From positions 1 through 60,026 of the forward strand of contig JYFJ02002296.1 of NCBI GenBank assembly GCA_000934665.2: a DNA stretch of 60,026 nucleotides. Direction: 5' to 3'. The stretch comes from Catajapyx aquilonaris. Taxonomy: Eukaryota. Below the pieces are notes generated by a model, which did no database searches, was not told where the DNA came from, and saw nothing but the letters and a program-made list of their open reading frames with translations. Position 1 is the first letter of the stretch. Each line of letters opens with the position of its first letter. The translations under genes were made by a program, and so were the position numbers. This document shows positions 5,447 through 50,400 of the stretch, piece after piece.

Positions 5447-5580
5447 CCTTCTGTAGGTTGTTGTTGCTGTTGTTGTGTTGTTGTGGCTATCTGAAGGATG
5501 TGTGTGTGTATGCTGAGAGAGAAAGTGTTGCTTTGCAGGTCTGACCGACAACTGACCAAAAGCAAAGGAGGTGCGCCCTT

Positions 5581-5588
5581 TTTATATA
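5581..5588 (-). promoter_or_regulatory. TATA box of the globin gene
   Basis: TATATAAA on the minus strand, about 135 bp upstream of the globin ATG. Confidence 0.6.
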
Positions 5589-16454: not shown

Positions 16455-17043
16455 GACTGCGCATGCGCTTTGGTTTGGCTACGATTGGTCCAAATCGTAC
16501 TGTTTTCACGAGCCAGTTACAAAAGTGGCAAGTTGGTTGATTGGTCGTTTCGAGGCGTCTGCTTGGCCACGATTGGCGTTAACCAGCACTGTTTTCACGT
16601 CCCAGTTGCAGCATATCACGCATGCGCCAACTTTGTTCGATTGGTCGTTTTGAAACATAGACGTATTATATATATTATATACGTCTATGTTTTGAAACCC
16701 CTGCTTGGCCACGATTACACGTCCCAGTTGCAACATAGCACGCATGCGCCAACTTGTTCGATTGGTCGTTTTGAAGCCCCTGCTTGGCCCCAATTGGCGT
16801 TAACCAGCACTGTTTTCACGTCCCAGTTGCAGCATATCACGCATGCGCCAACGTGTTCGATTGGTCGTTTTGAAGCCCCTGCTTGGCCACGATTACACGT
16901 CCCAGTTGCAGCATATCACGCATGCGCCAACTTGTTCGATTGGTCGTTTTGAAGCCCCTGCTTGGCCCCAATTGGCGTTAACCAGCACTGTTTTCACGTC
17001 CCAGTTGCAGCATAGCACGCATGCGCCAACTTGTTCGATTGGG
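16455..17043 (+). repeat. Tandem repeat (units of about 80-120 bp) in the putative promoter of gene C
   Basis: Core cgtcccagttgcagcatatcacgcatgcgccaacttgttcgattggtcgttttgaa occurs five times plus a diverged first copy; each carries GCATGCGC and ATTGG. Confidence 0.85.
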
Positions 17044-17227: not shown

Positions 17228-20200
17228 ATGTATTCGGCGGCCTTCGCCACGACCTGCTGCGTGTCCTCCTGCCCCAACCACCTGGGCAGATGCGACCCGC
17301 TGGACCTCCTCCTTCCCTTCCCACCTCTAGAGGAGGAGAGGGAGCGCCGCTTCCTCTGGATGCAGGCCGTGCTCAACCCGGACAAGGCCAGGGTCTGCTC
17401 CAGGCACTTCCAGGAAGGGGACTTCCTCACACAGGTCATCGGGGGACGGAAGGTCAGGAGGCCCGCACTCAGGAAGGACGTGCTGCCTTCCGTCAACCTC
17501 GCACCAATGGGTATAACATACCATCGGAACCACTCGTTCTAATTCTAATAATAATTACAGATGAGACACACGTACAGTACATTATCATCATCATTACAGC
17601 CAGAATATACTCATTTAACAACTATAACCGCATATAACTGGCTGCGTAGCTACTCACGATGCCCATTGCCACGGCCCACCTTGTTGCCATGTACACCCAT
17701 TGGCACGGCAGCCCGTTGGCATGTCGCTATATCGCTCAAAAACATACGGAGACGATTTTGCATTCACACCAAACGCAAAATCGCCTCCCCATCTTTTTGA
17801 GCGTACATCCGTTGGCATGGTAGCACTGTTGCCATGTACAGCTTGTGGGTGTGGTAGCCTGTTGCCATGTACAGCAAGGGGTAAATTACTCTGCAGTTGA
17901 GCGTACAACAGACTTGTAAAGGGGCCGGACTTGGGCTCGAACTTGGTCGGACTTGACGAGTGATTTGCCCCTTGATGTACATCCGTTGGCATGGTAGCCT
18001 GTTGGCGTGGTGGCTCGTTGCCATGTGCAGCCGTTGGCATGGTAGCCTGTTGCCATGTACAGCAAGGGGTAAATCACTCGGCAGTTGAGCGTACAACGGA
18101 CTTGTAAAGAGCCGAACTTGGCGGACTTGAGCATGGACTTGGTCGGACTTGAGCCTGGACGTGGTCGGACTTGGCGCCAACCGTACAGAGGACTTGACGA
18201 GTGATTTACCCCTTGATGTACAGCCGTTGGCATGGCAGCCCGTTGGCATGGTAGCCGGTTGCCATGTACAGTTCGTTGGCATGACAGTCCGTTGCCATGT
18301 ACATCTGTTGTCATGGTAGCCGGTTGCCATGTACAGCCGTTGGCATGGCAGCCCGTTGCCGTGGAAACTTGTTGCCTTGCACATGCATTGGCATGGCAGC
18401 CCCTTTGGCATGTACAGCCTGTTGGCGTGGTAGCTCATTGCCATGTACACCACTGCCATGTAGACACTTCGCAATTATAGGTGGGACAACCGGACAAACT
18501 TTGCCTTTTTGCACGAGGAGATCGTGTGCGCTTTTGTGTTGCGATGATAGAATGAGTGGTGAAACAAATTCGGAGGTTTTCTTTGCGGCGCTGATGTTCC
18601 TGTCCTTGCAGTGCCGCACATCACGGAGGTGATACCGTCGACTTCCCAGCCCATAGGGTCCGTGACTGACGTGGCACCGGCGATTGCGAAGGCTTTGGCG
18701 ACCATGCACCAGGCTTGGATTCCGGCGGAGGCCAAGAGGGAGCTGGAAGTCGGGCCCGAGTGAGTGCGGGATTCAATGCAGGTTGTACCATGCCAGGGGG
18801 CTAATGGATCAATCTTTGCCCACAGCATCACTACCCAAACTCCGGTCAGGGGTCGCGGCAAGAAGGCCCAGGCTGCAGCTCTGAAGAGAGACTTTCGGCC
18901 CAGGAGGATTTTGCCACGCACAGGTAATTGCGCTAAATGCGACGAGATGCATCATCCTCGTTACAATGCAGCCAAAGTGCACTCGCATTATTTTCACTGC
19001 AACAATTCCCTCTATAATACTCACATGGCCAAGAATATTAATGCACCTTTTTTTTTTTGCAGTTATTTGGTCTGCTCTAGCGAAGAGCCTGGAGGAGGCC
19101 GAAGCTGCGAAGACAGCTGCTCTGAATGCACAGAAAGCTTGGTCTCAGGCAAACCAGAAACCAAGGATTGCTCCGAAGAAAGGGAAGGCGGCAGATGATG
19201 CACTGGCGGCCAAATCTGTTAAACTGATGCCAACTAGACCGGCTCAGGTCAGACCAGCTGGGTCAAGTGCGACGAAACCACTTCCAGCGAAGTCGTACGC
19301 AGCCAAACCAGCTGCAGCGAAACAAGCAGCCACGAAACTGGAAGTGACTTCCCGGGAGAAGCCGTCTGGTGCTCACCCATTCAAAATAATTGTCATCAAG
19401 TCTCCAGTGGATCCCAAAGCTGCCCAAGCAGGAGCCAAGCCTGCGTCAACGGAGAAGATAGAATTTGACAAACCAGCCGAGGCCGTGTCCGTCAGCCAGC
19501 CTGGAACTAGCTCATCCCAGACGAAGCTGCTGGTTGTCAATCCAGCCTCGGGGAAGCAGAAGCAACCCGTGTTCTCCATCACGTCGCCATCTGCAAGCTC
19601 TTCTCAGTCCGCTCAAGGTGCAGCTCCACAAGTCAGTTACATCGTGTTTAAACAAGGCACTGTAAATCCTGCGTCGTCGCAAGTGTTTGTCCAAGAGAAG
19701 GCTGGATCTAGCGGTGAAGATGCGGAGGAGCAGAAACGTGACGATCAGTAAGTTACTTAGTATTACGAATGTTGATTATTTGGTACTGAATCACATGTTA
19801 TCGCACTTCCAGAATCTCCAGCGAGAGCAGACCTGAGAGCAAATCGGATTTGACGAAGAATCAGCCTGTCATTTGTCCGATTTGCAAGAAGGTGGTTGCG
19901 AGGAAGCGCAACCTGTACCAGCACATGCGTCTCCATCAGAAGCACCCAAAGTGCCAGCAGTGCGGGAAGGAGCAGGGAAAGGTGCACATCTGTCCGATGG
20001 CAGGGAAAACCTACAAGTGCGGCAAATGCGACGCCCTGTTCATGAAGAAGTATCAGCTTGCATTGCATTTGATGAAAGTTCACGGGATTAAAATCGATGG
20101 GAACAAGGCTGTAACATGTGGGGTGTGCCAAAAGACGTTCATAAACGCCATGTTTCTTAAAAAGCATTTGAACATGCATAAACCGGAAGGGCCGCTTGCC

Positions 20201-20902
20201 TGTGGGATATGCGGAAAGCAGTATCCTACGTACCGAAGTCTGCACCACCACCAGCGAATTCACATTGAGAAGCCTCATGCGTGCAACTTGTGCGAGTACA
20301 GGTCGTATTCGAAGTCAAATCTAGGTGCGCATATGTCAACTCACTACAAGGCTGAGCGGCCTTTTATGTGTGAGGAATGCGGCAAGACGTTCACCAGCAA
20401 GACGTCATTGAAGAAGCACAGCGTCGCGCACACCGAGGAGAGACCGTACCAGTGCAACGTATGCGGAAAGGCCTTCAAGATCAAGTCATCGCTGGACAGC
20501 CACACCATGCTTCACACAGGCGAGAAGCCGTACAAATGCGAGATATGCGACAAGGCGTTTGCGCATCGCACGTCCTTGTCATTCCACCGGCGCACCCACA
20601 CTGGCGAAAAGCCTTTTGCTTGCATGCTGTGCGGGAAGTCGTTTGTTCACCGGCAGGCAATGCAGCGCCACATCAGGATTCACACTGGGGAGAAGCCGTA
20701 CACATGCGAGATATGCGGGTTGGCCTTCCGGTTGAGAGAGACCCTCAACAAACATCTGCAGTCTCACGCTGGCCAAAAAACAAGGCCAAGAATAGTAGTG
20801 GACGTCCCGGAAGTGTATCAGGTGGAAGAGGTACAAGACGAGGAAGTCATTAACCTGGAGCTGAAGAAGCACATGGGGATTAACAGGCCGCATCCAGAGT
20901 GA
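17228..20902 (+). CDS. THAP-C2H2 zinc-finger protein C (about 10 fingers)
   Basis: Exons 17228-17510, 18612-18759, 18826-18923, 19063-19747 and 19813-20902; intron phases 1,2,1,2 are all consistent. Confidence 0.88.
17660..18462. repeat. Intronic degenerate minisatellite (ttgccatgtacagccgttggcatggtagcc) with ggacttg subrepeats
   Basis: Many direct and self-complementary tgcca/tggca units, plus an internal duplication (about 17810-17990 vs 18030-18235). Confidence 0.8.
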
Positions 20903-21735
20903 TGCATCTTACACTACCAGTTGCGCACTGCCAAATTAGCTCTCGTGTAACGAGGTTGAGGCGGTTGAAGAAACAGGATTTTTTTTCTCCCCCCCCCCCG
21001 AAGTATCATTAGAAGCGTGTTTCAATTGCGCTGTTTTTTGTGTATACAGTGCCTTTTCAGTGCTGTCTGCAGACGCACTGGAGTTTTCATGAGCCTGTAA
21101 TTTACATCAGGGCAGAAGCTCGTAATACTTTGAAGCAAATAACGGTACAGCAGCATGAGACGTAACGTCGTATGGTGTTGCGATTGGAGAATTTGCTTGT
21201 AGCAACTTGTAAAACAACACAGTGTTTCACTTGTTAGAATTAGGTGAGGCGTGACCTTTTTAACGGCAGGTCAACCGCCGAATGTCATTGCAACAATGCA
21301 TAATACGAGTAGTTTGCCACTTTTTTGAAATAAAATGTTGAGTTTTTTAAAATAATTATTATGCTTGTTAATCATCTCGGTAGATTTTCTTCAACAGCAA
21401 CGCCTGAAACATGGAGCAGACTTTGTAGTGGGACTTGCTTACTCAGCCTTGTAATTATTCTGTGTAGTTAATCAGTAACTACACATCAAATTGCATGTAA
21501 CATTGTTCACATTGTTGAACGAAAGAGGAAGCATGTAATTTAGCCCTGGCTGTACCACAAATGTAAGCTCCGGTTGGGCCGTGTGTTTAGACGTCCCAGT
21601 TGATATCCAACGCGCATGCGCCGTTGGACATCCCTGACCGTCTATTGGTTGTTTCGTCCACCAGGTGTTCTCATTGCGACTGGCACGTGTGAACCTCCGT
21701 CGAGCCTGTTCCGCGTTCCATTTCCACACTGGAAG

Positions 21736-24700
21736 ATGATGTCCGTGGCGATGGCGGTTCCTTCCTCGTGCTGCGTGTCCTCCTGCCCCAACCACCTGGG
21801 CCCCAGATGCGACCCTCTGGACCTCCTCCTTCCCTTCCCACCCCTGGAGGAGGAGAGGGAGCGCCTCTTCCTCTGGATGCAGGCCGTGCTCAACCCGGAC
21901 AAGGCCAGGGTCTGCTCCAGGCACTTCCAGGAAGGGGACTTCCTCACGCAGGTCATCGGGGGGCGGAAGGTCAGGAGGCCAGCCCTCAGGAAGGACGTGC
22001 TGCCCACGCTCAACATGATGGGACAACAACAACCACCATCATCAGGTAATAATAATAATAATAATACACTGCCCCCAACAGTGATGAGTGGGACGAGGTT
22101 AAAGAAAGCTCATTTTTCTCACAAGCGCAGTAGAAAGTAATTTAGAATTCAACTGACATAACATCACATCACATCGCACATAACTAATGTAGCACATAAC
22201 TAACTCATATAATATAGCACATAACTGACATGGGATGTAACTGATACAATGTAGCTGATAATATAACACATGTCACATAACTGACATGGGATGTAACTGA
22301 TACAATGTAGCTAAAAATATAACACATATCACGTAACTGATATAATGTAGCTGATAATATAACACATATCGAATAACTAATACGACATAGCTGATGATAT
22401 AACACATCACATAACTAATATAATATAGCTCTTGATATAGCACAATCATGCCACATTAATATAATATAGTTAATGATATATCACATATCGCATAACTAGT
22501 ATGACATAGCTGATAATATAACACATGTCACGTAACTAATGTAACATAGCCAATAATATAACATATATCGCATAACTAATATACCGTAGCTGATAATATA
22601 ACACATCTCACATAACTAATACAATATAGCTGATAATATAACATATCACATGGCTAATACAATATAGCTAATAATATAAGATGGAGCACATAACTGACAT
22701 GGGATGTAACTAATACATTATAGCTAATAATATAAGATGGAGCACATAACTGACATGGGATGTAACTAATACATTATAGCTAATAATATAAGATGGAGCA
22801 CATAACTGACATGGGATGTAACTAATACATTATAGCTAATAATATAAGATGGAGCACATAACTGACATGGGATGTAACTAATACATTATAGCTAATAATA
22901 TAAGATGGAGCACATAACTGACATGGGATGTAACTAATACATTATAGCTAATAATATAAGATGGAGCACATAACTGACATGGGATGTAACTAATACATTA
23001 TAGCTAATAATATAAGATGGAGCACATAACTGACATGGGATGTAACTAATACATTATAGCTAATAATATAAGATGGAGCACATAACTGACATGGGATGTA
23101 ACTAATACATTATAGCTAATAATATAAGATGGAGCACATAACTGACATGGGATGTAACTAATACATTATAGCTAATAATATAAGATGGAGCACATAACTG
23201 ACATGGGATGTAACTAATACATTATAGCTAATAATATAAGATGGAGCACAGTCATAACTGACATGGGATGTAACTAATACAATATAGCTAATGTAACATA
23301 TTATGTTACATTATTAGCTATATTGTATTAGTTACGTGACATATCTTATATTAATAGCTACATGTTATATAGAACATAGCCAATGCAACATGATATAACT
23401 GATATGACAGTGAATGTAGCTATAGTGCGCAATGTAGCTTTGTAACTGATATAACGTGTAATATAAATAAATATAGAAATGTGGCTAATTTTTGTTTTAA
23501 AATTGTGCAGCGTCGTCAGTTCAGAAGAAGAGCGTGTGGCCCGCCAAAAAGAGTCGCGTGAGGAAGTCGGGATGGAACAAGGCCAGGACGGGACGGGGTT
23601 CTGCGGCTGGTGGGGCGTCGGTGGTGGCTGCGAAGGAGTCGCCCGTTGCGCGGAGGGTTCTGCTGGAGTCTTCGGACGAAGAGGGAGAGGAGTAAGTTGG
23701 GGGTTGGCACGTGTGGAAGGCGCGTAGTGATGGGTTGATCTCGCATGCCGCTTAGTCAAAAGTGATGTTGATTTGTATTTAGAAGTACCGCACGTTTCGA
23801 ATGCAATATTGACCCTGGTTAATTCTCCGCAGGTGTACAAGGAAACGAAAGGACTGCCTGGAAACATTGTCTGAAGACATGCAACCCAAGAAAACTGCGC
23901 GGCTCACAGGTAAATTCTGAAACTGAACTGAGACTTGCAGCATCTTCTCTGATGATTGAAGAGATTACGAAATTTGAAAAGGCTTCTAACTGAAAAGTTG
24001 CCAATGTTGAAATAATTTCTTTGTGACATTTAATACTGGAACAATCTAGAATGGAAGTGTGCAAAGGTTGATTTTGCCATGGTCAATATAATTAAATGTC
24101 GAGGTTGCTTCTAACGGTATAGGGTGGAATTTCCTTCCCACTGCTAGTCACTGCTAACTAGTAGTGACCGCATCCCCCAACAATTATAGGTACTGCTAAG
24201 TTAGTAGTTTAACTACAAGTGGGACAAATATTCCACGCAAATTTTATTATTATTCCGTAGTTGTTATTTAAATGATTGAAATCTGGCTCCACCTACTAAT
24301 GTGGGTCATGGTAAAATTATTGGTCCTTGTAGTTACTTTAGCTGTTTTTGTAATGAATCGAGCCATGAGTGCCGTACATTGTTGTAAAGGGTAATTCTTG
24401 GAACTTTTTTTACAGCGAGACAGGCGGCTCTTGCAAAAAAACAGGCGACTTCCGACGCTGCCCAGAAGTCAACAAAACAGAACCAGATGTCGAAGGAGTC
24501 GCAAGAGGGAAAGACGACACCAACAGAGAGCGAAGATGAATTTTGTGACCTTACGGGGGAAACTTCTGATGAAACTACCCAAAGGAAACCGACTTCGGAC
24601 GAAGACGCTCCAGGCAGTCCAACTCCGACTGAACCTCTCGATGATGAATCCGTATTAGAATCGCCCCCTCCATCTGTAGAGAATTTGTCTGAATCGGCTT

Positions 24701-26277
24701 CAACAGCTGTGAGGCCCCCGATGTCTACGCTACATATGAAATTAATCATCAAGCCTCCCGACAACCAGGAAAATGCAAGTGTCCCAAACGCAGAAATGCA
24801 GCCTGAATCTTCAACAACCGCACCCGCAAAAGCCGTACAGATATTGCCAGTGCATAAGCAAGGTGTTGGCTCATCAGAAATGAAGCTCCTCATCGTAAAT
24901 CCAGCCTCAATGAAGACGACATCTGGCCAACCGATGTTTCCCATCCCGTTGCCAGCATCGGGCAAATCCAGTGAGGGTCTACCGTCGCCTGAAATCAGAC
25001 TGATCCTTCTGAAGCCAGGTGCAAATGCCGCAACACAGGGCCAACAGGTGTCCAATGATGAGCTTTCGGCCCAGGAAAGCAATGAGAAGGAAGAAAGTGG
25101 GTGAGTTAGATTGTGTTTTGAAGGCCATTTGCATTATATTTATCCGGTTTTGTTTTCAGAAAAGCAAGCGGAAATTTGCCTGAAGCTTCTGCAAAAGTGG
25201 CTGCCAAACCGTACAAGTACAAGCCCGTCCAGTGCACCATTTGCAACAAGACCGTCGCCCGGCAGTGCAACTTGCCGCGACACATTCGGCTGCACCACTT
25301 ACGAGGGCCCAAGCCCGTAAAATGTAGACGATGCGGAGGGGAACGTGGGGATAACCACAACTGCCCGGTAGTGAAGAAGAAGCATGTTTGTGACCAGTGC
25401 GGAGGCGAGTTTACTCAAAGGAACTATCTACGCCTGCATGTGTGGGCCGCACATTCAGACAGAGCCAGGAAGACTCAGCGGACATTCCATTGCAGTTGGT
25501 GCAGCGAATCCTTTCTGCTGAAGCCTTTGCTGACCGATCACATCATGAAAGCGCATGAAGTCGAGTCAGAATCGGTGCGGATGCCATGCGTTTGTGAGAT
25601 TTGCGGAAAGAGGTGTGTACCGCACTCGTGACCTAATGTGAACATGTTAATAATCCGTCGGTTTTATTTTCAACAGGTTTCAAAAGCAGAGAAGCTTGCG
25701 GATCCACTTGCAACGACACACTGGCGAGAGAACATGCGTGTGCCATGTTTGCGGACGTGGTTTCTTCTCCAAGTCCGACCTGAATGCTCATCTGTCGCTC
25801 CACACGTGGGAGAGACCCCACATGTGTGAGACATGCGGAAAGACTTTTAGATCCAGAGCAGGTCTCAGCCACCATAAAAGAAGGCACAGTGAAGCGAAGC
25901 CGTTTCAGTGCGCCGTATGCAGTCGCAGCTTCAAGCTCAAGTCTTATCTGGATAACCACCATAAGATACACACTGGAATGAGGCCTTACAAGTGCGAGAT
26001 ATGCAGCAAGACGTTTGTGCATTGTACGTCCATGAGATACCATCAGCTGACCCACGCAGCTGAGAGGCCATTTCCGTGCATGATCTGCGGGAAATCATTT
26101 GTCCACAAGCAGGGGTTGCGCATGCACGTCAAGATTCACACCGGAGAAAACCTGTTCGAATGTGAAATTTGCAGCAAAGCGTTTAGAAAGAAAGACTCGT
26201 ACGTGAAGCACGTCAAAGCACATACGGACGGACTCTCGTTGGAAAATCAAGCGGAAAAACTATCGCAGAATAATTGA
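21736..26277 (+). CDS. THAP-C2H2 zinc-finger protein D (about 10 fingers)
   Basis: Exons 21736-22045, 23511-23691, 23833-23909, 24416-25100, 25160-25612 and 25677-26277; phases 1,2,1,2,2 are consistent and the first four match gene C. Confidence 0.88.
22150..23360. repeat. Intronic 56-bp satellite
   Basis: Unit cataactgacatgggatgtaactaatacattatagctaataatataagatggagca; about 10 identical copies at about 22675-23250, degenerate related units upstream, inverted fragment after about 23295. Confidence 0.95.
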
Positions 26278-26730
26278 CGGAAATTGAATGAAGTTACGCA
26301 GCCTTAACGATGTTAGTTTTTTATAGTCCCAAACTGTACAAATATTTGGCATTTTTTTGGGTTGTAATGGACAGTTTAATATTTTTGCATTGCACGTCGC
26401 TCGTGAATTCTTAACAATATACAACAAAATTAACATAAAAAGTTGGTTTCATTTTTTTTCCCGCATTCCAAAACTGTACATTTGCCAACCCAAAATTCCG
26501 TGCGTCTGGCAATGAATTTTGTGTTACCTGTACGCCCAACAAATGGAGACCTTTGGCTAATTATTTCCTCATGTCCCGCTTTGGCTCTTCAAATTTCATG
26601 TCCCAACATGGACACCAGTGTCCAGCATCTTGATGGGTAAGAATGCAGTACCAGTACTTTCAATTTTGTTGCAACGATAGGCTACGTGATGTGCGATCTA
26701 ATGCTGATGAATAATTTGCATTGTTTTCAG

Positions 26731-27481
26731 CAACGTGGGCAGTAAGAGTCCTGATGTGATGGACAAGAATGTGGATCATGCGGATGGAACGTACACTTGC
26801 GACATTTGCAGTGCGCAGTTGCCCAGCCGTCGCAGTGTGAAGCTGCACATATTTCGGGCGCATGTCGAAAAAGTATTGCGGTGCGACCAATGCGACAAGT
26901 TGTTCTCGAAGCAAAGGGCGCTGAAGCGGCACAGAGAACTGAAGCATGGCGAGGTGAATTCGTTGGCGTGCGAGACATGCGGGAAGGTTTTCTTGAACAG
27001 CAGCCGCCTGCAGGTGCATCGGAGACGTCACGCCAAGGAGAAGTCGTTGATGTGCCATGTGTGCGGGAAAAAGTTTTCATTCCCAGGAGAGTTGGAAGTT
27101 CATTTGCATGTTCACACCGGAGAGAAACGGTTCATGTGCGACATCTGCGGGAAGACATTTGGGAGCCAGTCCGCACTGAGCCATCACCTGCAGACGCACA
27201 GTACGACAGTGAAGCAACATCAGTGTGCCATATGCGACAAGACATTTGCGCTCAAGTCCATGCTCAACGACCACCTTGTGCTGCACACTGGGAAAAAGCC
27301 ATATCAATGCAAAGTGTGCCTGAAGGCTTTCCCATGGCGCTCATCTTTGGCCAAGCATATGACCACCCACTCTGACGACAAGCCGTTTCCATGCGACATA
27401 TGCGACATGACATTTGCCTGGAAGCTAAGCAGAGACAGACACCTGACGGTGCACAGCAGGGAGAAGCCCATGTCGGAGTGA
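26731..27481 (+). CDS. Orphan C2H2 exon (8 fingers), probable alternative terminal exon of gene D
   Basis: Acceptor ttgttttcag at 26721-26730 with phase-2 entry, open frame with 8 fingers, AATAAA at about 27510, and no THAP exon of its own. Confidence 0.8.
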
Positions 27482-28460
27482 AACTTGAACCGGAGGACAA
27501 CTTTTTTAAAATAAAATGTATTTGGAAAACAATGTCATCAAAAAATATATTCGGATACATTTGCAGAGAAAAAAAATAATCCAAACGACTCGAATTCAAA
27601 CCGCGCGCTCTTTTCTTCCCGGAACATGCGCAGAACCCGTGCGCATAACTTGCACTGCAGCCTTAATTAAACATCGTAATTAAATCAAACTGTCGTTGCG
27701 TTCCATTTCGAAGCCACTAATTAATATACTGTGCTACTTTTAATTATAAAAGGTATTAGTTAATTACAGACCTGCTTATTCGTAGCGGCACTTCCACACC
27801 CCCGAGTGGAATTCTAATTAACGGTGATTATAAGGATCAATACTGGGCATAATATGACTGTACATTATATCCATACAAACAAATGCAGTTATATTAATAT
27901 AATATTGCGAATTATAGTTTCAGAATATATTTTTTGTGCCCCACAGGTAGTGGGCGTCCACCGGGAGTGGGCTGCGTTCGACGTTCTTCTGATGAACGCC
28001 TAGTCGGACGCAGCCTTGTTTTGTTGAGAGTGAGAGCGAGTGATTGTTTCCTTCGGACAACAATACCTGGAGCCTCGCATTGTCGTCGATTGAAGGTCAG
28101 TTGGGGGCCAGGATAAACCCTGAAACGATTGCCGCACCGTACAGGGCCATTGGGAGAATCGTGGTGGCCAAACAGACGCAGCCAAATCCATTTTAGTTGT
28201 GACTATCGGGCATAGAATCGAACGAAACTAGTCCCTGTCATGTACCTTATAATTTATTTATTCTTTAAAAAAAAGGAACAATTTTCTAAGTTGTGCAGCG
28301 TGCATGGCAATCAGTTTTCTAATTTAAATGACCAGTAATTACCTGTAGAATTTTACAAGAATAATTGTGGAGGTACATATGCAACAAGCTTTTTGTCTTA
28401 CATTTGTGAATTGCCTATCCATTGTTGACTAACCATTTCAGAGGGAAGTGAGCACCTAAT

Positions 28461-28796
28461 CAGGGAGCATACATACTACATAAAGAGGCGCAAACATTCG
28501 ATTTTTGCGTCTCTCTGTTTGGGGACTGGCGGCCATCTTGAAGTGTGTGGAACGCCAACGAGGTATAAATAGGGTACAGGCAAAAATAGGGTCCGCCATC
28601 TTTGATTCGCGCGTGTTCTTGCCATGTAGTTGCCATGGCCGTCACAATCATCAAAGATGGCGGACCCTATTTTTGCCTGTACCCTATTTATACCTCGTTG
28701 GCGTTCCACACACTTCAAAATGGCCGCCAGCCTTGGCAACGGCCCCAAACAGAGAGACGCGAACATCAAAGGCGCCGACAGAAGTTCGCGCCCCTG
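28461..28796. mobile_element. Foldback MITE with CAGGG termini, copy 2
   Basis: Near-identical internal arms to 2973-3309; 7-bp flanks acctaat/acctagc. Confidence 0.85.
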
Positions 28797-29299
28797 ACCT
28801 AGCTCCTCCCGTTGAACTTTAACTGCTCCTCTTGCATGCATAGAATCCAGGTTAATTGGGGTGGCAGGAGGCAGATCGTCATTTCACAGAACGAACTGCA
28901 TCAAATTGGGTGTCATGCTTCACTTCATCCTCACACGTTGCTATGGAACGTGCTACACGGAAGCCCTCTTGGATCAAACTTGTGGGAATTAGTCATACTT
29001 GGGGCTCACAAAGTGGTTGTGTCATTGCAAGGTGTCCTAGGACAGTCACACCAAGGGGGTAACCTCTCCCCAAAAAAGTGTACAGCATGCCGGTTACCCT
29101 GTACAGACCTGTTCCACGAAATGGTTACCCCCTCGGACAGCACTTTTGCAGGTTGACTACTGGAGTAAACAAGGAATGGGCATGGGTGATTGAGGAATGC
29201 CGGCCCACATGTAGAAGACTACATGAACTCCTGATGGATTTCTCCACTAGGTGACATGATTCGAAGCAACCAAGAGCCACCCTGCCGATGGTTCTCTTC

Positions 29300-29500
29300 G
29301 GAGCAGAAATCTGGGGCAGGAGAGCAAAGATTAAGAGTATCAGGCACCTGTTGCCGTTGCCAATGTCAGGTCGCAGGACAGCCTGGTGCAGGGGGCGCAG
29401 CGGGTCCTGGCAGCGTCTGAAGGGAGGATATCGCTCTGTTGGGCAAAGGCTCATTCTGGAATATATGGGAACGAGGCAGCTGATGAGGAGGCAAATGTGA
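29300..29500 (+). mobile_element. Decayed non-LTR retrotransposon RNase H fragment
   Basis: ISLCWAKAHSGIYGNEAADEEA matches the RNase H C-terminal motif WVxxHxGxxGNExAD; boundaries approximate. Confidence 0.7.
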
Positions 29501-29780
29501 CAACGGCATGGGCAACCTTTAACGAGTTCTGCCTGCGAGTGCTATGCATGCAAAAGGAGCAGTTACAGTGCAATAATTTCAGGCCCACCGTGGCCTCAGA
29601 TGAACTCAGCATGAAAATGCCATATTTATATTCTGCAACTGAGATGACAATTATTTTATTTTTGACCCTCACTATAGTCCCTTATGGACAGGTGGTGCTG
29701 TAATTGTTCGGTAATGTGAAGGTGTGTTGCTGATGCCGATTTATTTACTGCTGCACCATTAGGAGCTTGAGTGTTGAAGG

Positions 29781-32093
29781 ATGCCGTCACTACCCCCCAG
29801 CCTCTGCTGCGTGTCATGCTGCCCCAATAATCGTGGCAAAGGGGCCTCACCAGCTGGTCGGACTCATTGCTATCCTTTTCCAAAGGATGAAACGATGAGG
29901 GCATTGTGGTTGACTGCCATTTTCAATCCTGATGTGTTTGGGGTGTGCTCGGAACACTTTCAAGGAGGGGATTTTATTTATTTCCAACCTCAAAGTGGCA
30001 GTGAAGAAGATGAAGAACAAAGGATGGAGCCATCTCCTGTCATGCTTAAGAAGTATGCTTGTCCATCCAGAAATCTAACTCGCACAGGTTGGTAATATTA
30101 TTGTGGCCTTTAGTAGAAGTAGTAGTTGTCTCCAGGATGATTATAATGCAATCATTTCGTAAGGTATCATGATCAATTCTTTGTTTGTAGGTTGCGTTAG
30201 TGCGTGAAAGAGAGTAAATCTGAAGTACCTTATTATGTTATGAAGCAAGTTGTTTACAGACTTGTGGCTACACCAAGCAATTAATATCTGCATTAATTTC
30301 CAGCTGAAGAGGTGACAACAAAAGGCAGTATGACGACAGAAGTGCAGAAGGAACCAGTCCTGGACCACAATAACGAGGGATTACCTAAAAGAAAGAGGGT
30401 GTCATTTACTGACGTTTTGCAGAAGTTAGCAAATGAAGCAATGGAAGTCAAAGCCGGAGATAAGATTCCTAGTGATCATTCCGTCAGAGTGGAGCCCTTG
30501 AAGAAGGCTCCCATGGTGGTCATACATGACACAGAGTTTCTCCGATGTCACAGTTTTTCACGTGTACCCCTTTCGAATGAAGTGGAACCAATTTTGCCAC
30601 GGAGTCAGTATTCATCAGAACCCATGGATTTGTGTGGACCAATTCCGATTGAAGATCAATCATGCTCCCGTCGTGCTGTTAGGTGTCAAGGGATTCTTAG
30701 TGGACAGGAAGCAGCAAGTGCTCGTCAAACTTCATGTGAACCATCCCCTGATGCTGGAAGACCACTTTCAACTGTTAATGAGTCTGAAATGACTTCACTG
30801 TTGGCAGGCACTTTCAACCCGTCTTGTTCAGATGAACCAGATGAAAACAAAGCAGATCCGCAACTTACAGACAGATGCAACCATACCAAGATCTCCAAGC
30901 AAATTGGTTGCAGTTTGGAAGAAAGGATTATTGCACTTGTGGCCCTGGACCATTCTTATGCGTGAGTGTCAAGGTGATCGTTACAAAACCAGCCAAGTTC
31001 TGCTGAATTGCTTTTCTTATAATTATCTGTAATATTGGCCCTTCCCCTCACGTTAACATGCCGCTAGGTAAAATCATTCGTAGAGTTTTCTCCAGGTTGT
31101 AAGTTTATTGAAATAAAATTAAATCATGGAATCGGAACATGAAATACTCTGTATGAAAAATGACCTGACTCGTAAGCACTTCTTTCTTTAAGCCATTTTT
31201 CCTATTCCTTGGATGAATTAAAGTTGGACTGATGAATCGAGTCCTTACAATAAAGAATTAGCTAGAAAAACCCTACAATCGGGGTAAGGAAAATAAAATA
31301 AATAAATAAGAATTAGCTAGAAAATATTATTCCCACTCTGATCATTTCTTCAGCTGGACCATATGTCAAAATTGATAAAAGGTAACAAGCAATAATTTTA
31401 CATGTAGTGCATAATGATAAGGTCTAGAATTATGGTGACATCTTTTAATGTGGCTGAGTTGCTCCACTGATGCTAGATTGTCTACCATGGATTGAATGCT
31501 CAACTTTCGATGGGCCGCCAGATCTCACGGGTCTTTACGACCTAGGTTGTAATAGAAGAAGGAATTACGCAATATGCAGCAAATTCAAATTTCGTGTGAA
31601 AGATGTTAATGGATTCATTCCTTTCTTGCAGAATTTGCAGAAAACCTCATGACCATGACATTCAGAAACCACCAACAACTAAAGAAAACTGTTTGAAGAC
31701 CGGTACTGCTTCGCCTGCCAAAAGGAGATCAGATTGTTTGAAGACCAGTACTCCTTCACCTGCCAAAAGGAGATCAGATTGTTTGAAGACCGGTACTGCT
31801 TCGCGTGGCAAAAGGAGAGCAGATTGTTTGAAGAGGAAGCAGCCACATATAGCAAAGTCAACGAAAAGGGGTGGCACCTTTGGTTTATGTGAAAACTGTG
31901 ATAAGCAACTTGAGGGTGAACCTCATGGCTCAGTTAACGGAGATGTTCACATGGAAGAAGGAGAGGAGCAGTTTCCGAGTGACTTGGGCCCAGCGGAACA
32001 TGATGTTCCATCAAGGCGTGCTGAACGTAAGGTGCTGCTCCGCAGGAAGTCACTCTTCCAATGTGTATTATGTGGTAGGAAGGACCTACGCAG
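29781..32093 (+). CDS. THAP protein E, lacking an intact C2H2 array (3' end unresolved)
   Basis: Exons 29781-30087, 30304-30961 and 31632 (or 31641)-32093 are phase-consistent. THAP pattern CCVSCC..YPFPKD..WLTAIFNP..VCSEHF..ACPSRNL; DHSY motif; ends in the half finger FQCVLCGRK. A possible last exon lies at 33043-33091. Confidence 0.7.
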
Positions 32094-33739
32094 GTACGCA
32101 ATGCCACTTTTTTTTGTGGTGTATAGGAAGTTGAAATACCTGGTCATGATGTAATGAACGATGATTACCACAGCACGGTTATTGCAGAAGGGAGTTTCTC
32201 ATGGGGTGTGGGAGGTAGCCATCAGTCTTGATAAATTATTACGCAGGGTGTGGAAATTTATCCTGCCTTTGCTTTTGAGGATGATAGAAGGACTCTAAGG
32301 CATTAACCATTTATGGTTAGGCCTCTTTTTTGTGTTCTCTCTTTTTGGTGTGGGTGCATCAAAATAGCACCTGCTCTACTTCCAGATTTATTGAAAGCTA
32401 TTAAGGCCAGGTGCAAACAGGCTACTTGGATCGAGGCTACTTGAAGCCGATATTCAAGCATCAAGTGTTTCCAGGTAGACGGCAGGCATGGTGTGGCCAT
32501 ATGAATCCAGGTTTCTTTCCGTCTAGCAGAAAAATTGGATACTTTGAAATCGGCTTTAAGTTGCCTCGATCCAAGTTGCATGATTACTAGGGGGCGACCG
32601 CGTGCTTGCTACAATATCACATGACAATAACTGTGCTTGTGACCAAGGTAGTGGCATTTTAAAATGTTGTACTCTTTTGTTCAACCCAGTACACTCTTTA
32701 CAGGTAATGCAAATATCATTGATACCAACTGGCAGACCTTATGGAGGTGGATATTGCTGATGGAAGTCCAACTTGAAGAACTTTTTTTTAAAGCACAGGA
32801 TAAAGTACTTCACCTGACGTGATCCGATGTGAATTATTTACAGTAGTCAACATCATGATCTTGGTGTGCATTCAGCTGTCACAAATGCATTGGAGAACAT
32901 AATATCAGTGGTTATCCAGTTAACTGACTGGGACCTTGCAACCTGAATCATTCTTAATTTATTTATTTTTTATAGTAGCACATGCTATATTAAGTCTTGT
33001 GAATCACCAGGCTCAGGGGTGCTCTTACTCTGCATTTTGCAGCTTGAAAAGCGCCGTGGCGATCACATTGAAGAGAAGCATCTATGTTTAACATCGTCAG
33101 TTTTCATCAAGTCCTTTTGTTAACTTGGGCCTTGGAATGGGAGAAAAGCATTAAATTGTGAGCAAAGTGTGTTTTGTGCGAAAAATAGGTCATCAAGTTA
33201 GCAGCCGAACAAAAATGGAAGCAGTGCATTATGCACAACATGTGATGTACCCAGTGGAATTTCAGAAACAGGTGATGCAGAGGCGAACTTGTGCAGAGGA
33301 GTGTCAAATGTATAGAAAATATTAATGAGGGGAACTAAAATATTTGGTCAAATGTTGGATATGAAGTTTATGGCCACACAAGCATGGAAATGGTGCATTT
33401 AGTATTAATATGTGAGGTGCAATTCCATAGACATCTGAATCAGTGAAGTTGTACAAAACACAGACTACACGTGACTGTCAAACATGTGGAAAATATTTAT
33501 TTAATAAAGCAACTGCAATAATAAATTGCGCTGTCTTTTTCCAGATCCTGAGAGGATATCAAGATTTAGTGTCTAGGGGGAACCCCCCCCCCCCCCACCA
33601 TTGATTATGTTATTAATTTTATTATATACCTCATTGAAAGAATTTTGGTCCAAGTTCTGAAGATAATTCCAATTCCTTTTTAGGGTTATATTACATAATT
33701 TTATGTTTATAACTTGATTGATTGGTAATGTTATGTTAA

Positions 33740-34161
33740 AGGGACACGCCACTCAAAAACCAAGTTTGGCTCTAAAAATCGGGCAAAAAAGCCTGAATCC
33801 GAAGGTGCAATCTGTTTTTCGCTACGCGGAACGGTAATCCCAGGCTGAGGTGTCAAAGTGTGTCGTCTGCTAATGAGCGGCGCCGCCACGCGGGGAACAG
33901 GGGAACTGGAGGGCTGCACCGCTCTGGGATGGATCTAAAAATAAGCGCGCGGGCAGGCGGGAGCAGCCCTCCAGTTTCCCAAGGTCCCGAGGGCGTCGCT
34001 GGCGGACGGCCAGCTTCTAGCGCACTATTTGAATTCCCCCCATTTTGACCCCTCGCCCTGGGATTACCGTTCCCCGTAGCGAAAAACGGATTGCACCTTC
34101 GGATTCAGGATTTTCTGCCCGATTTTTAGAGACAAACTTGTTTTTTGAGTGGAGTGTCCCT
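33740..34161. mobile_element. Non-autonomous DNA transposon with ~105-bp TIRs (Kolobok-like)
   Basis: agggacacgccactcaaaaa...gtaatcccagg pairs with cctgggattac...tttttgagtggagtgtccct; TTAA on the left only. Confidence 0.75.
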
Positions 34162-35313
34162 GGATGTAATATACAGTATATAATATTTTATGTCATGCAT
34201 TAGAAGGCAGAATCTAAGATATATAGGGGGGGGGGGGGGGGGNTCAGTGTACTTAACGTTCGTGTTTCGCGGCCGTGACCGAAGTTAGAAGCTCCACTTT
34301 ATAGGCATGCACCAAAATAATTGCAATTTTGTCGATCAGTGCTAACATATTATAGCCTACCGGTTCTTTGCTAACCATAAAATGCTGATTACTCAAAAAC
34401 CTGTAGTTGATGGAAGAAATTGGTGGACATATTTGAAATCAGCGCAAAAAAATAAAATATAGGAATCGCACATTCATATGTTACATATTGGCCAGAAAGA
34501 AAAAAAATCAAATTATTTCGTTCCCTATAGTGTTATTATTAACAACTATAATAGGCGACTATCATTATATTAACTGCTATGCTTTCTAACTGCTACTATA
34601 AGTTCTAGTTACTTTGAATTACTTTTAATCCCAAGTTTAATCCTGACATGCGTATTAAGATAATTATCATAAGCGTAATCATAATAATTATGGTAACCCT
34701 TATTATCTCCTATCACTGGCCATAACGGATTGGTCAAGAACAAGGTCAAGAATCGGTTCGGTATTGCTTGGGACGCATGCGCACGTCGCAGATTGGGGGG
34801 GAGGGGGGGGGGTTAATTTGCCCATGTAATCTCTGTATTGTTATTATTTAATATTTTATAATTCAACTTGAAAGTAATACAATTAGAGAGCGGAAGTGGT
34901 TGGGGGTCATTTGCAATTTATGTGCGTTTTAAGTGGGATTTGTGATGGTGTGCTTGATCGTGTGAATAAGAACGCTCGTTCTCTTCCCAACGATCAGAAG
35001 GATCAGGACTCGTTCTAAAATTTGGGATTCCCCCTTCGATTTAAAAATTATTATTATCTCGTTTTATGCCCACTTTTTAAGGACTATATAAACTCGGTGG
35101 AAATGTGCGACCGGACCATGCATCCATCAGTGGTGAGAGCATGCCTTCGGGGCCTTTATTTTTGTGAAAGTAATGTCTGGCTATGCATCCGTACACACTC
35201 ACTCTAATAAGAATAATTGCAAAGCAGTTGTTGCTTCTGGTTGGACTTTGGATATGACATGTAGAGGCGGGACAACTCAAAAAAAGATTTGGCTCACTCT
35301 CCTACCTCTGCAG

Positions 35314-38106
35314 GAATGGACTGTTGAAGCCAACTTGAGCCTCCTGCGCAGGAAGTGCTGCATCTCTGCCTGTCCCAACAACAACAGCCAATCCAGCAGG
35401 AAAGGGACGCACTACTTTCCATTCCCCTCCGACCCGGGAATGCGACTGGTCTGGATGACTGCCATCCTCAATCCGGACGCATTCAGGGTCTGCTCCGACC
35501 ACTTCACCCAGGATGATTACGTCTTTCCCATGGCACTGGACAACTCGCAGGAAGGAAGAAGCCAAGGTGACAAAGAAGGGACGGTTTATCCAGTCGTACT
35601 CAAGAAATCCTCATATCCAACCAAGAGACTTCCGCACACAGGTATAATGATACATCCTAAGTTGATAATGATCACTTACAGCAGCTTTTCTCAACCTTTT
35701 TACCTTTGCGGAACCCTTGAAATAGTATCCATGTCTCAGGAAACCCCTACATAAAAATTAATCAATTAATGACTCAAAAATGCATTAACACATGATTAGT
35801 CTAATGTGCAGAAAATGAGGGAACGATCTGACATCATCGAGGTTTCCATGGAAATACTCTCACAGAACAATACGAGTAGACAGTGTCAACAAAAAGGCAA
35901 AAGCGATGACGTCAGATCGTTCTCTCGTTTTCCGTACATTGTTTCTAGCAAAACCCCAGTTGAGAAATGCTGATTTATGGACTGGGAGTGGATCTCCATG
36001 CATCTTTAGTTGTTTCCTAACAAATACGTGTTCATTAACTTTGAAGTGATGAAGATGGAAGCAAACGAGACAGACGAAATACACCAAAGTGCACAGAATT
36101 CAGTTGTGAAGCTGGCAGAGTCAGGAGAAAATACTTGCGAATTGTTGGTGAGAAGGGAAGATATTGAGCCGACCCCTCTTCCATCTGAAGTGCAAACGGC
36201 ATCGTCGTTTGGATCTCTCGACAGCTCATCCACCAACGAGGAGGAACGTAGCACCAATATAATCATAGTTGATGCCGGACCGCAGCCCAGGCTAGGAAGT
36301 AATGAACTGGAACTGATAAAAACTGAAGCTGACGAGGCTGTTGCTGAAGATAATGACTGCAGCCAGACCTCAAATATGGTGGCCATGGACCATGACTATG
36401 GGTGAGCGAATGGCAGATCTGGGTTAAAAGCTCATTGATTTGATTGATTCTCATTTTTGTTCTCAGTTCTCAGTCTGGTGCGCGTGAGTTGAAGAAGACG
36501 AAGTTGAAGAAGGTTAGGCCAAAGTCGTGGAAGTGCGATACATGCGGAATGACTTTTGCGAACAGGACGCTTTACATAGAAAGACACATGGCAACACACC
36601 AGCCGTGTGAGGTGTGTTTTAAAGAGCGAGGTGACGATCACAAGTGTGAAGCCGTCAAGATGAATATTTGTGACAAGTGCGGCACAGAAGAGGGGGAAGA
36701 TCACAAGTGTGCCGTGGTCGAGTGTAAGACGTGTGAGGTGGAATTCGCAGATGAGTACCAGTTGGCTGTGCATAGGGCGCAATTGCATGCTCAGAAGAGG
36801 GAATTTAAATGCAAAGATTGCGGAAAGTCCTATCGCACGATGGGAGGATACGTAACTCATCGGCAATCACATGATGAGGTGTCCATATCTTACGACTGTG
36901 GAAAATGTGGCAAAAGTTTCCTAACCTCTCAAAGGCTCAAGGTCCACTGTCAGACACACGTTGAAGAAAAACCACATCAGTGCAAGCACTGTGTAAAGTC
37001 ATTTAGCACCAAGCACTCCCTGTATCGGCATGAAATGAGTCACCGCAGGGAGAGGCCTTTTGCATGTCCAGCCTGTAATAAAACCTTCAGAGACACAACA
37101 CAGCTCACTGTACACATGCGTGTGCATACTGGGGAGAAGCCGTATCCATGCAGCCAGTGCGGAGCTTCATTTCGTCAGAAGCCGCACCTAGCCACACACT
37201 GTAAGTTGAAGCACTCTGACGCCACAGTCAAACGTGGCCTCCAGATGAAGCAGAAGTGCATGTGCGAGATCTGCGGGAAGGTACGATGAATTAATTAATG
37301 CTTCGTTTGTACCCCTTCCATCTCCATTGTGATTTCCTGACACCAATTCCATTGCAAAAATATTTAGAGCTCTGATTGTATTGCGCTTGTTTACTAACAC
37401 ATGGTTTCACTTGAAGGTTGTCAGTGGAGCATCGGTGCTGAAGAACCACATGAAACGTCACACGGGAGAAAAGCCTTTTGAGTGCAACATTTGTAAGAAG
37501 CCCTTTGCATTAAGAAGCCAGGTGGTCTCCCATATGCATATCCACAACGATAATAAACCACACCAATGCGAGACCTGCGGGAAGGTTTTCGCACACATCA
37601 GCTACTTGTACATCCACAGGAGGACACACAAAATGGTAACTTGTGTGTTTTACATTACAATAATTATCAGAGCAATGCTGTTTGATAATCAGAATATAAT
37701 CCCGTCTTTAATGAGGATGTTGACATGTGCAGAACAATAATTTTACATCTTTTAACAGGTCCTGCCATATGAATGTACAATTTGCCGGAAGACCTTTGTA
37801 ACTCGTATGCAGTTTGAGGACCACACGCGTCTTCACACTGGAGAAAAGCCGTTCCAGTGCGACCTCTGTGGAGAGAGTTTCAGCAGCAAGATGAAGAGGA
37901 GGCGTCACAAGCTAAAGCACGAGTTGCGTCACCACTGTGACGTATGTGGGAAAGCTTTTGGGTACAGGTCAGAAATGATGGTTCATAAGAGAACCCACTC
38001 TTCAGAGAGGCCGTTCAAGTGTGCTCTGTGTGGCGGGAAAGGGTTCATCAGTGTGGGGGAACTCAATCGGCACAAGAAGAAAGTACATGGACTTGAATCA
38101 CTGTAA
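35314..38106 (+). CDS. THAP-C2H2 zinc-finger protein F (about 14 fingers; start codon uncertain)
   Basis: Exons 35314 (or in-frame ATG 35173)-35641, about 36047-36401, 36467-37280, 37417-37635 and 37759-38106 are phase-consistent. THAP pattern CCISAC..FPFPSD..WMTAILNP..VCSDHF; DHDY motif. Confidence 0.85.
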
Positions 38107-47400: not shown

Positions 47401-50400
47401 TCACCCTGTGTGATAAGGTATTATCAGCGACACAGAATATCCAACACGCCCCGCTTAGGAAAACATGAAAATATGCCAATCCTAATAAGCGTGACCTTGA
47501 CTTGAAATCATGAATTGCGGAAGAGTGATATCAATTGAAGATAATTTCATGCAGTTTGTGTCTGCAGTCCTGAGATTGCATTCGTGACCTTGCTTCACTT
47601 CATAATTAGTCACCTGACATATCTGTCAATATTGTAAATTAAAATGTACAGGTAGTACCGCTTTTACAACATCGGAATGCAATATTTTTGCAAAATCTCC
47701 AGAAATGTTTTAGAAGCAGTGTCACAACCTGATTGTTTTGCCTCAGAGAAAAGCCTCCATTGTTTCATCTTCATCCACAAGCACTAGTGACTAAAACTGG
47801 AGCAGAATTTGTGCTGAAGTAGAGCATATAAAGTGGAAATGGATGGAAGTGGCTTCTTAGGAGAAAGGAGAATGAAGTGAATTGTTAGGACATCATTGAG
47901 GATAAACACTGGGAAAGTTCCGCAAGTGCTGGCCATAAGGATATTGTTCCGCCCATGAATTGGAAATGTGTGTGACCACTTGAAATGCTCTTTATTTTTA
48001 ATGCTGATTGGCAGTTAATTATTACATATTAAAAACGTCGTGTTTTTCATTCTCTTAGTGAAGTTAACAGAAGCTGTTAAGGCCAAAACACAAAAAGATT
48101 TTGCGGCAGCGTCAAGCGGCAAACGCCTGCCCCGCCAATTATTATTAATTAGTGGCAATAATAAATATAAATAATAAATATGCCGCAACGCATGCCGTTT
48201 GCTGCGCGTTTTTTTTTTTTTTTTTTGTGAAATGGCCTTTAGAGCGAGAGAGATTTCGGGAAGATAGAAAACCCATACAAAAAGTTTGCTATAAAGTCAT
48301 ACTATACATAATTTGAGTTGGCACATGTAAATCAGTTGGAACTGTGCTAAGGCATAGGATGTGTTCTAGCATGGAGAGCATAAATTTCTCATAGCATTTG
48401 CAAATCATGAGTGGTGGCATTGAGGCTCGGATTTTAAATTTTCTTGATGTCAATACCCTACTTGCTCGTAGCTTTCCCCCCCGATTACGCAGACGTGACG
48501 TAAAATACTGTAGTTATCGTGGGCCTGACCATAGCTGCTGTTTCTACCTGGTAATGATCTAGAAAGTTGACAACAACAAACTTCAGCAAGCACTTAGATT
48601 ATCCTACGCACTACTGAGAAAATGATTATATGTTTATGCTTGGATGATAAAAGTAATGTGGTTTGCCTGCGTTGCCTACAACACGTGATTAGTACAAATG
48701 AATCCTGAAAACCATCAGTACAGTGTTGCATGTCTTTCAGGAAGCATTGCATCGAGGAGTTTTGAACATTTCAATTCAATGCTCAAATGAGGGAGATGAT
48801 ACCCCATCAGCTGAGAGTTTTTGAATAATACATTTTTATGCTGCGCCGTGCATAACCTAAGAACATTGCTAGCTCATTGCGAGTTAATTACGACATTATT
48901 CCCTATGGATATGCACTCACAGGTCTAATGACAGCTGATATCAGTGAATGGTTTTAAGCAAGAAATTCCTGGATGTTGGATTCTGATGATGATTTTTATT
49001 GACAGCGGAAGAAGCGATGGAACCTGGTAATGGAGATGGCAACATGGCAATGGGGGTGGGTCCCATGGAGCACACGGGACCCGCTCAAGTCCTCCTGTCC
49101 CCAACATCCCAAGCCGAACTGGAGAGGAACAGAGAAGAGTGGAAGCTGGAGCTGGCACAGGTTGAGGAGGAGATCAACACACTCAGGCAGGTTCTGGGGG
49201 CTAAGGTGCTGAGGTCGCAGGAACTCAAGAGGAAGCTTGGAATCACCGTCTGGAGGGAATTCCAGGACGACATGTCACAGGGACTCAAGAATGTCAAGGA
49301 GTCCAATGTGTATGTATTTCATATAGTTTATTGGGATGATCATTGTGGTGTAGGAATAAGCGTGTCGTGAACAGCAGTGAATACTGCACTCATGCACCAA
49401 AGGGTTGCATGTGCACTGTAAGGTCGGATAGTCCCCTTTTTCTTCTTTTTTTCTGACAAAAAAACTGGTGGCCATTCACTCCAGGGGGTGGCTTTCAAGG
49501 CCAGACCAATGGGGTTGGAGCACCTCTGAAGTCATGTCAATTTTTTATAATGAAGATTGCTCAAATAATAATATATTGGTATAGGTAATTGTGTCATTGC
49601 ACGTTTCCTCTGCATTCTTATGCCACATCAAGGGATACTTAAAATGTATGGACTGAAGTGAAGGCATGAATTCTGATATAATTGCTTGGCAGCCGTGATC
49701 ACACTTCATCAGGATTAATTTCTAGTGGTAGCTATGGGTAGGCATACATTATCATCTTCATTTGAATCATTTTATTTGTACGAGGGTGACTCAAAAAGTA
49801 ATAATATTGGCAACTTTTTAAATTCTGAAGCTTCACAACAGAAACTGAAACTGACATTACATATGAAAGGGCAAGCCTTTCTCTACTTTTAGACGTAGTC
49901 ATCATACTATTTGGTGCACTTGTCCTACCGGGACTTGCCCTTTTTTATATGTGCATGTCAGTTTCAGTTTCTGTGGTTTCAGAAATAAAAAAAGTTGCCA
50001 ATTACTTTTTGATTCGCTCTCGTAAATTGAAATATCAATCTCATTATCATCAGTCACCATTACATCATTTCTCATGTCAGGGACAAATCAGAACAAGTTA
50101 AATTGCAAAATGTGAGTGAAAAAGTGAATCTACTATCAATTTTGTAGGGGTGGCATTTGATCAAAAATATATAAAGTCCAGAACCTGCTTTGTCAAGCAG
50201 GTCTACGCGCAAAGCTATAAACTTGTGGAAGAGGCTGCTTGGTCCACTCTACAATGTCCATTCAGTTGTGCAGATGGTGTGCTATAGTGTATATTTGTAG
50301 AACATCATAAACATTCCTTGCCGCATGCAATGAGGAAGTTGTCAGAGCACAATGCACTTTTGTGTGAATAGTTGGCTGCTACTCTAGGTCCAAGAGTAGT

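Follow-up and report, generated by a model that had tools for sequence, protein, structure and literature searches.

The Drosophila genes broad and fruitless are cited alongside lola as loci with alternative finger exons. According to the excerpt of PMC1947980 cited here, lola combines common BTB exons with about 20 finger endings through cis- and trans-splicing. Excerpts of two papers on Drosophila mod(mdg4) describe mRNAs formed by trans-splicing and variable 3' exons that have their own promoters (PMC13490949, PMC4667647), and one of them puts trans-splicing between paralogues at under 5.8% of events (PMC4667647). A different arrangement is the tandem C2H2-ZNF cluster whose members carry an N-terminal accessory domain, exemplified in the cited part of PMC10547256 by KRAB-ZNF genes in tetrapods, FiNZ-ZNF genes in cyprinids and ZAD-ZNF genes in insects; the word THAP is absent from the main text of that paper. 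An excerpt of PMC9810180 presents Drosophila CG6689 as a THAP-bearing finger gene whose paralogue CG17803 lost the THAP domain. Among the titles and abstract beginnings that our literature searches listed, we found no case of a THAP-headed gene with alternative endings, and such a case may still occur in print.

Here we analyze an orphan zinc-finger exon located behind a THAP-finger gene (gene D) in a tandem cluster. The first-pass annotation had proposed that this exon is a second, swappable ending of gene D. We consider it more probable that it belongs to a small gene of its own.

The THAP-finger cluster and its orphan exon

The window, meaning the whole stretch of DNA analyzed, is an entire contig of 60 kb from a genome of 285.6 Mb. 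Its + strand carries six THAP exons in the region from 8.8 to 35.6 kb, with Pfam THAP scores of 35-43 bits. THAP exons head C2H2 arrays in five genes (A, B, C, D and F); in gene E the THAP exon is present and spliced, and C2H2 fingers are absent. Whole-genome searches gave 50 matches for the D THAP exon and at least 202 for the orphan fingers, which points to a large lineage-specific family. The intron between the linker and the next exon is of phase 2 in B (13313), C (19747), D (25100), E (30961) and F (36401), as judged from the sequence. The common phase previously noted for B, C, D and F thus stands and extends to E. The linker-finger introns of B, C, D and F are 59-65 nt long.

Several other features of the window were recorded. 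The cluster is flanked by a globin-like gene recognised by eye (2122-5581, - strand) and by a TPD52 gene (48993-54207, + strand), an exon of which is 53-80% identical to the matches listed, with hemimetabolous insects as the best and none close. The THAP exons of C and D (17246-17500 and 21760-22017) are 92% identical in protein and 94% identical over 211 nt; their finger arrays are only 43% identical and their linkers barely alignable. Gene conversion or exon replacement limited to the head may be offered as a reading of this likeness. Gene E (28036-33400; 476 aa) has a non-coding first exon (joint 28095-29763), a stop directly past the joint 32093-32704, and a 45-nt triple repeat at 31690-31834. 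It stands directly behind the THAP-less orphan, a fingerless head beside headless fingers. Right at the phase-2 donor, the E linker closes with DHSY (30950-30961) and the F linker with DHDY (36390-36401); both presumably resemble the HCF-1-binding motif of THAP proteins. Tandem arrays occupy 22151-23381 in a D intron (56-nt unit) as well as 16468-17042 and 17683-18452 in the promoter and an intron of C (units of about 178 and 16 nt), and copies of the 178-nt unit repeat the GCATGCGC motif upstream of C. Two MITE-like inverted-repeat elements lie at 28526-28730 (81-nt arms, 99%) and 33740-34161 (121-nt arms, 91%), the former resembling a stretch near 3100-3277.

We then examined the orphan exon and its surroundings (Table 1). 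The first-pass annotation had described it as an intact exon of eight fingers, starting about 450 bp past the D stop with no THAP exon upstream, and as having a phase-2 acceptor that matches the phase-2 donor at 25100. Each of these points was borne out. The ORF 26711-27481 holds eight complete C2H2 fingers with zero internal stops (Pfam zf-C2H2, E 7e-31), where five or more tandem fingers in one open frame were looked for. The D stop (26275-26277) lies 454 nt before the exon, and DNA and protein profiles built from the six THAP exons of the window found no THAP match in 26200-26800. When viewed as a possible repeat or transposon piece, the gap had a single match in the genome, in a search that skips very common words. 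The acceptor reads TTTTCAG/C with 26730 as its last base, and base 26731 is codon position 3, which gives phase 2; 10 of the 14 nt that precede CAG are pyrimidines, compared with 9-12 in the eight acceptors joined by contigs. Joining 25100 to 26731 yields GGC and leaves the frame open, and the proximal acceptor 25160 fits the same donor equally, giving GGA.

Table 1. Coordinates of gene D, the candidate first exon and the orphan finger exon in the window
Feature	Position	Strand	Basis and remarks
Gene D THAP exon, first coding	21736-22045	+	Pfam THAP 37 bits; join to exon 2 inferred
Gene D exons 2, 3	23511-23691, 23833-23909	+	contig joints 23691-23833, 23909-24416 (GT..AG); start 23511 inferred
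Gene D linker exon	24416-25100	+	contig record 1 crosses into 25160; phase-2 donor GG/GTGAGT
Gene D first finger exon	25160-25612	+	contig joints 25100-25160, 25612-25677; donor 25612 phase 2
Gene D last exon and transcribed 3' extension	25677 to at least 26538	+	contig record 2, 25675-26538
Candidate first coding exon of the orphan	26608-26636	+	predicted; 9 codons + 2 bases; phase-2 donor GG/GTAAGA
Candidate intron, 94 nt	26637-26730	+	acceptor TTTTCAG; CTAAT at 26698; intron-like composition
Orphan exon	26731-27481	+	8 intact C2H2 fingers; in-frame ATG 26759; stop TGA 27479-27481
AATAAA polyadenylation signal of the orphan	27510-27515	+	sequence

The phase match has to be read together with the origin of the exon. 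Using the variable finger positions only, we compared 466 windows from 73 arrays and found the best match of orphan fingers 4-8 in fingers 8-12 of gene B (z=5.6); D ranked second, and C scored high as well. Same-strand neighbours are thus paralogous to the orphan. Over the whole array, the orphan is 37-38% identical to B, C and D, compared with 43-50% for B, C and D among themselves, and the best genome-search matches are partial, at 31-48% identity. The orphan therefore descends by duplication from a finger exon of the B/C/D type, and its phase 2 is inherited. The match with the D donor is then no more than chance, because it has odds of 1 in 3 a priori and is expected by descent. Both 25160 and 26731 share the donor's phase, as is common to B-F by descent, and D is not singled out as the donor of the orphan. 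Moreover, the internal D donor 25612 is also of phase 2, so that compatibility is cheap at this locus. The orphan is an old copy that has stayed intact, and its intact frame suggests that it is translated. We found no close homologue of its N-terminal fingers: longer and near-length searches returned four generic matches each (23-36%), and neither of two exact sequence look-ups matched. The D linker had no match among 1.84 billion representatives.

Contigs from one sequencing run were used for the stretch 23400-33500; the D THAP exon and positions 19747 and 36467 lie outside it. We treated the run as RNA because its contigs carry eight GT..AG joints. The joints, listed together with 8 of 51 contig pieces and 6 of 13 loose ends, include 25100-25160, 25612-25677 and 30961-31632. 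From the results, we observed the ordinary form of D and the downstream exons of E itself. With the THAP exon donor CAG/GTAATA, the 769-aa D frame stays open across every later exon of the gene. Within the orphan exon, contig record 3 spans 26761-27024 without a joint. The depth of the bin 26433-26769 is 4.05, and records 2 and 3 explain 4.04 of it; no contig therefore spans 26539-26760, and the run decides nothing on acceptor 26731. As to one donor serving two or more finger exons, the contigs join 25100 to 25160 and stop short of 26731. Neither AATAAA nor ATTAAA occurs in 26278-26730, which holds variants only, at 26287, 26416, 26434 and 26511. An AATATA variant and a U-rich tract predict a D polyadenylation site near 26440, as against about 27530 for the orphan signal. 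Splicing between genes of the cluster, which the first-pass annotation had derived from the shared phase with 19747-25160 and 30961-36467 as examples, has no support in 23400-33500, where 30961 is joined to 31632 and 25160 to 25100. We also discarded a back- or trans-splice of the E donor 30961 to 26731, as the joints listed take this donor to 31632 and include none to 26731.

A candidate first exon in the gap

Between the D stop and the orphan acceptor there is a sole GT[AG]AG donor, at 26636, and it is of phase 2. The first-pass annotation had overlooked it, together with the ATGs at 26608 and 26512 and the second phase-2 donor of D, 25612. ATG 26608 has A at -3 and G at +4; its frame is open from 26434 and contains the second ATG, 26512. 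Joining 26636 to 26731 gives a predicted product of 260 aa for which D is not needed. The predicted exon comes close to what the earlier proposal had named as telling against it, a first exon within 26280-26720.

The donor at 26636 has 6 of the 9 consensus bases, and the eight contig-joined donors score 6-8. The last five bases of the mini exon plus GT are identical to the B linker donor, and the length of the candidate intron fits the linker-finger introns of B, C, D and F. Its CTAAT at 26698 is, we assume, branch-point-like. In a chance test of 5000 dinucleotide shuffles of the gap, designed after the site had been seen, a GGT[AG]AG donor 45-200 nt upstream appeared in 131 shuffles, with an in-frame ATG in addition in 44, and with a purine at -3 as well in 23. 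A loose version accepting any GT[AG]AG in the gap with an in-frame ATG was passed by 404 of the 5000. The 29-nt mini exon is weakly exon-like, since its score is equalled or exceeded in 45 of 399 non-coding windows that precede GT[AG]AG. Its DNA showed no significant alignment with the B, C, D and F junctions (21-109 of 300 shuffled sequences did at least as well), and the open frame 26434-26636 compared with the cluster linkers gave a best E of 0.53. None of four promoter-type motifs, which we take to be NRF1-, CCAAT-, YY1- and ETS-like, was found in 26278-26730. At least one NRF1-like match was present above each of C, D, E and F; the tested windows upstream of A and B had none. An internal microexon of 18 nt (26619-26636) would be in phase, but we regard it as unlikely because the acceptor it would need contains 7 pyrimidines and 1 T, compared with 9-12 and 4-9 in joined acceptors.

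Readings of the orphan exon

We favour, with a probability of roughly 0.55, the reading that the orphan supplies the fingers of a small THAP-less gene that stands alone and has its own short first exon. A THAP-linker-finger gene of the B/C/D type would have been duplicated in tandem, with the THAP domain and most of the linker lost or never copied. The gene would start in the short gap at ATG 26608 or 26512, overlapping or abutting the 3' end of D, and would run through the 94-nt phase-2 intron into the finger exon and on to its own AATAAA at 27510. The 260-aa product would be nearly all 8-finger DNA-binding array. Its recognition residues differ from those of B, C and D, and it may bind sites of its own without a THAP domain. 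The intact array, the acceptor, the polyadenylation hexamer, the paralogy and the partial cover of the exon by the run are established for such a gene. The use of donor 26636, the promoter, translation and any function are predicted. The RNA of D speaks against this gene: it runs far into the gap, past ATG 26512 to at least 26538, and reaches to within 70 nt of ATG 26608, which leaves scant room for a promoter.

The same RNA is in line with the proposal of the first-pass annotation, in which donor 25100 is spliced to 26731 and the orphan becomes an alternative last exon of D. The weak D polyadenylation site would be passed and both D finger exons skipped, so that one THAP-linker head would carry either a 10-finger or an 8-finger array. 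Only this putative splice would place a THAP domain on the same protein as the orphan fingers, and the two forms could coexist with a stand-alone gene. The join is frame-compatible, and RNA of D extends to at least 26538 with no AATAAA or ATTAAA before the orphan, which has one of its own. The 454-nt gap shows neither a promoter-type motif nor a THAP relic, and an intact array needs some route to translation. However, an inherited phase 2 implies no selection of D as donor, and splicing from 25100 would have to bypass two acceptors and two donors along 1630 nt. It would probably face competition from the strong in-phase donor that lies 94 nt before the acceptor. Moreover, the contigs join 25100 to 25160, the proximal form, beside which a rare distal form may exist. 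The in-phase donor closer by, in a predicted exon that has its own ATG, appears to offer the simpler reading, and we hold the splice from D to be possible but doubtful. Equally tentative is the view of D as a two-way lola-like switch with a THAP head that captured the 8-finger array, of unrelated specificity, from a headless tandem duplicate.

Other routes appear less probable. The orphan could lack a promoter of its own and be read through from D, with transcripts spliced at 26636-26731 and ending at 27510, and with its ORF as a second cistron starting at ATG 26512 or 26608. The contig runs continuously from the last D exon to 26538, past ATG 26512, D has no canonical polyadenylation signal, the gap has no promoter motif, and a local donor and ATG are at hand. 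Translation would nevertheless require re-initiation or internal initiation about 330 nt behind a 769-aa ORF. Initiation so far behind a long ORF is uncommon in animals, and we consider this arrangement improbable. A recently silenced or non-functional duplicate, covered by unspliced read-through or genomic carry-over, would explain why contig record 3 has no splice joint, and the protein searches and exact look-up found no close homologue. All eight fingers are nonetheless complete and the frame is open across 250 codons despite 37-38% identity to the nearest paralogues, and the acceptor and AATAAA are intact; we rate silencing as slightly less probable still. Finally, the phase-2 donor 25612 can be joined in frame to 26731, replacing the last six fingers of D with the eight of the orphan. 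Such a join would cut the split finger of D in half and leave one finger broken, and the contigs join 25612 to 25677, making this the least credible of the readings and very unlikely.

Heads of finger arrays and comparison with known systems

To place the orphan, we counted the heads of finger arrays in the window and in 13 other contig stretches, a biased sample picked from finger or THAP matches. The count took arrays with an upstream array in view (n=61) and left out 17 arrays at stretch edges. By two profiles, 34 of the 61 begin with an acidic first exon of their own and 15 with a THAP of their own, and 12 have neither; these 12 are the split last exon of F, the orphan and 10 arrays on other contigs. 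For most of these 10, a clear local ATG exon was not found. One head per array is the rule, and headless arrays could include true alternative endings.

Individual cases vary. C554:36403, within a THAP-finger cluster, has the layout proposed for the orphan: 67 nt before its finger exon lies the phase-2 donor of a predicted ATG exon, accompanied by NRF1- and CCAAT-like motifs. C554:34243 has two upstream exons, as judged by eye. Across C554:33700-39066, three THAP-less arrays stand in a row in the THAP-finger cluster, two of them with plausible ATG exons of their own; the third, C554:38173, is preceded by a short exon that lacks a clear ATG and is the stronger candidate to be an alternative ending. 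In a large tandem family on C2330, C290, C170, C3788, C4428, C2987, C6448 and C2183, the members share a promoter, and a phase-0 finger exon follows an acidic first coding exon. On C2330 and C290, rows of finger exons that seemed headless were rejected as lola-like, since most have their own acidic first exon. On C4719, the two profiles found no head for four arrays.

The likeliest reading is one more head loss in a fast-turning zinc-finger cluster, of use for annotation only. If the splice from D to the orphan were true, it would show how lola-like alternative-ending transcription factors can begin, namely by a headless duplicate that inherited its intron phase and was picked up by the upstream gene, with THAP instead of BTB. 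A switch in D would then show a lola-type locus arising out of an ordinary tandem cluster whose paralogues are all phase-2 jointed.

Compared with lola as excerpted in PMC1947980, the locus would be alike only if 25100-26731 is used, with one N-terminal region and alternative finger-bearing last exons. It differs from lola in its THAP head and in having one candidate extra ending, which has its own candidate ATG exon. The mod(mdg4) gene described in the cited parts of PMC13490949 and PMC4667647 has a BTB head and FLYWCH endings, unlike gene D, whose proximal acceptor is in use 59 nt from the donor. Since 3' exons of mod(mdg4) have their own promoters in those excerpts, finding a promoter in the gap would not by itself argue against trans-splicing. 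Among the 12 pieces scanned, the head exons matched only Pfam THAP and no BTB, which lowers membership of the lola/mod(mdg4) group but leaves a similar way of working untouched. As in the CG6689/CG17803 pair, THAP is missing from one paralogue; unlike the orphan, these genes carry ZAD, and CG17803 keeps THAP-like remnants, according to the excerpt of PMC9810180. The head in our cluster is a THAP domain with a long unstructured linker, and the orphan has no recognisable head, in both of which it departs from the KRAB-, FiNZ- and ZAD-ZNF clusters as presented in the cited part of PMC10547256. It resembles them in its lineage-specific tandem expansion, in the order of head exon, short intron and finger exon, and in recognition residues that have diverged between neighbours.
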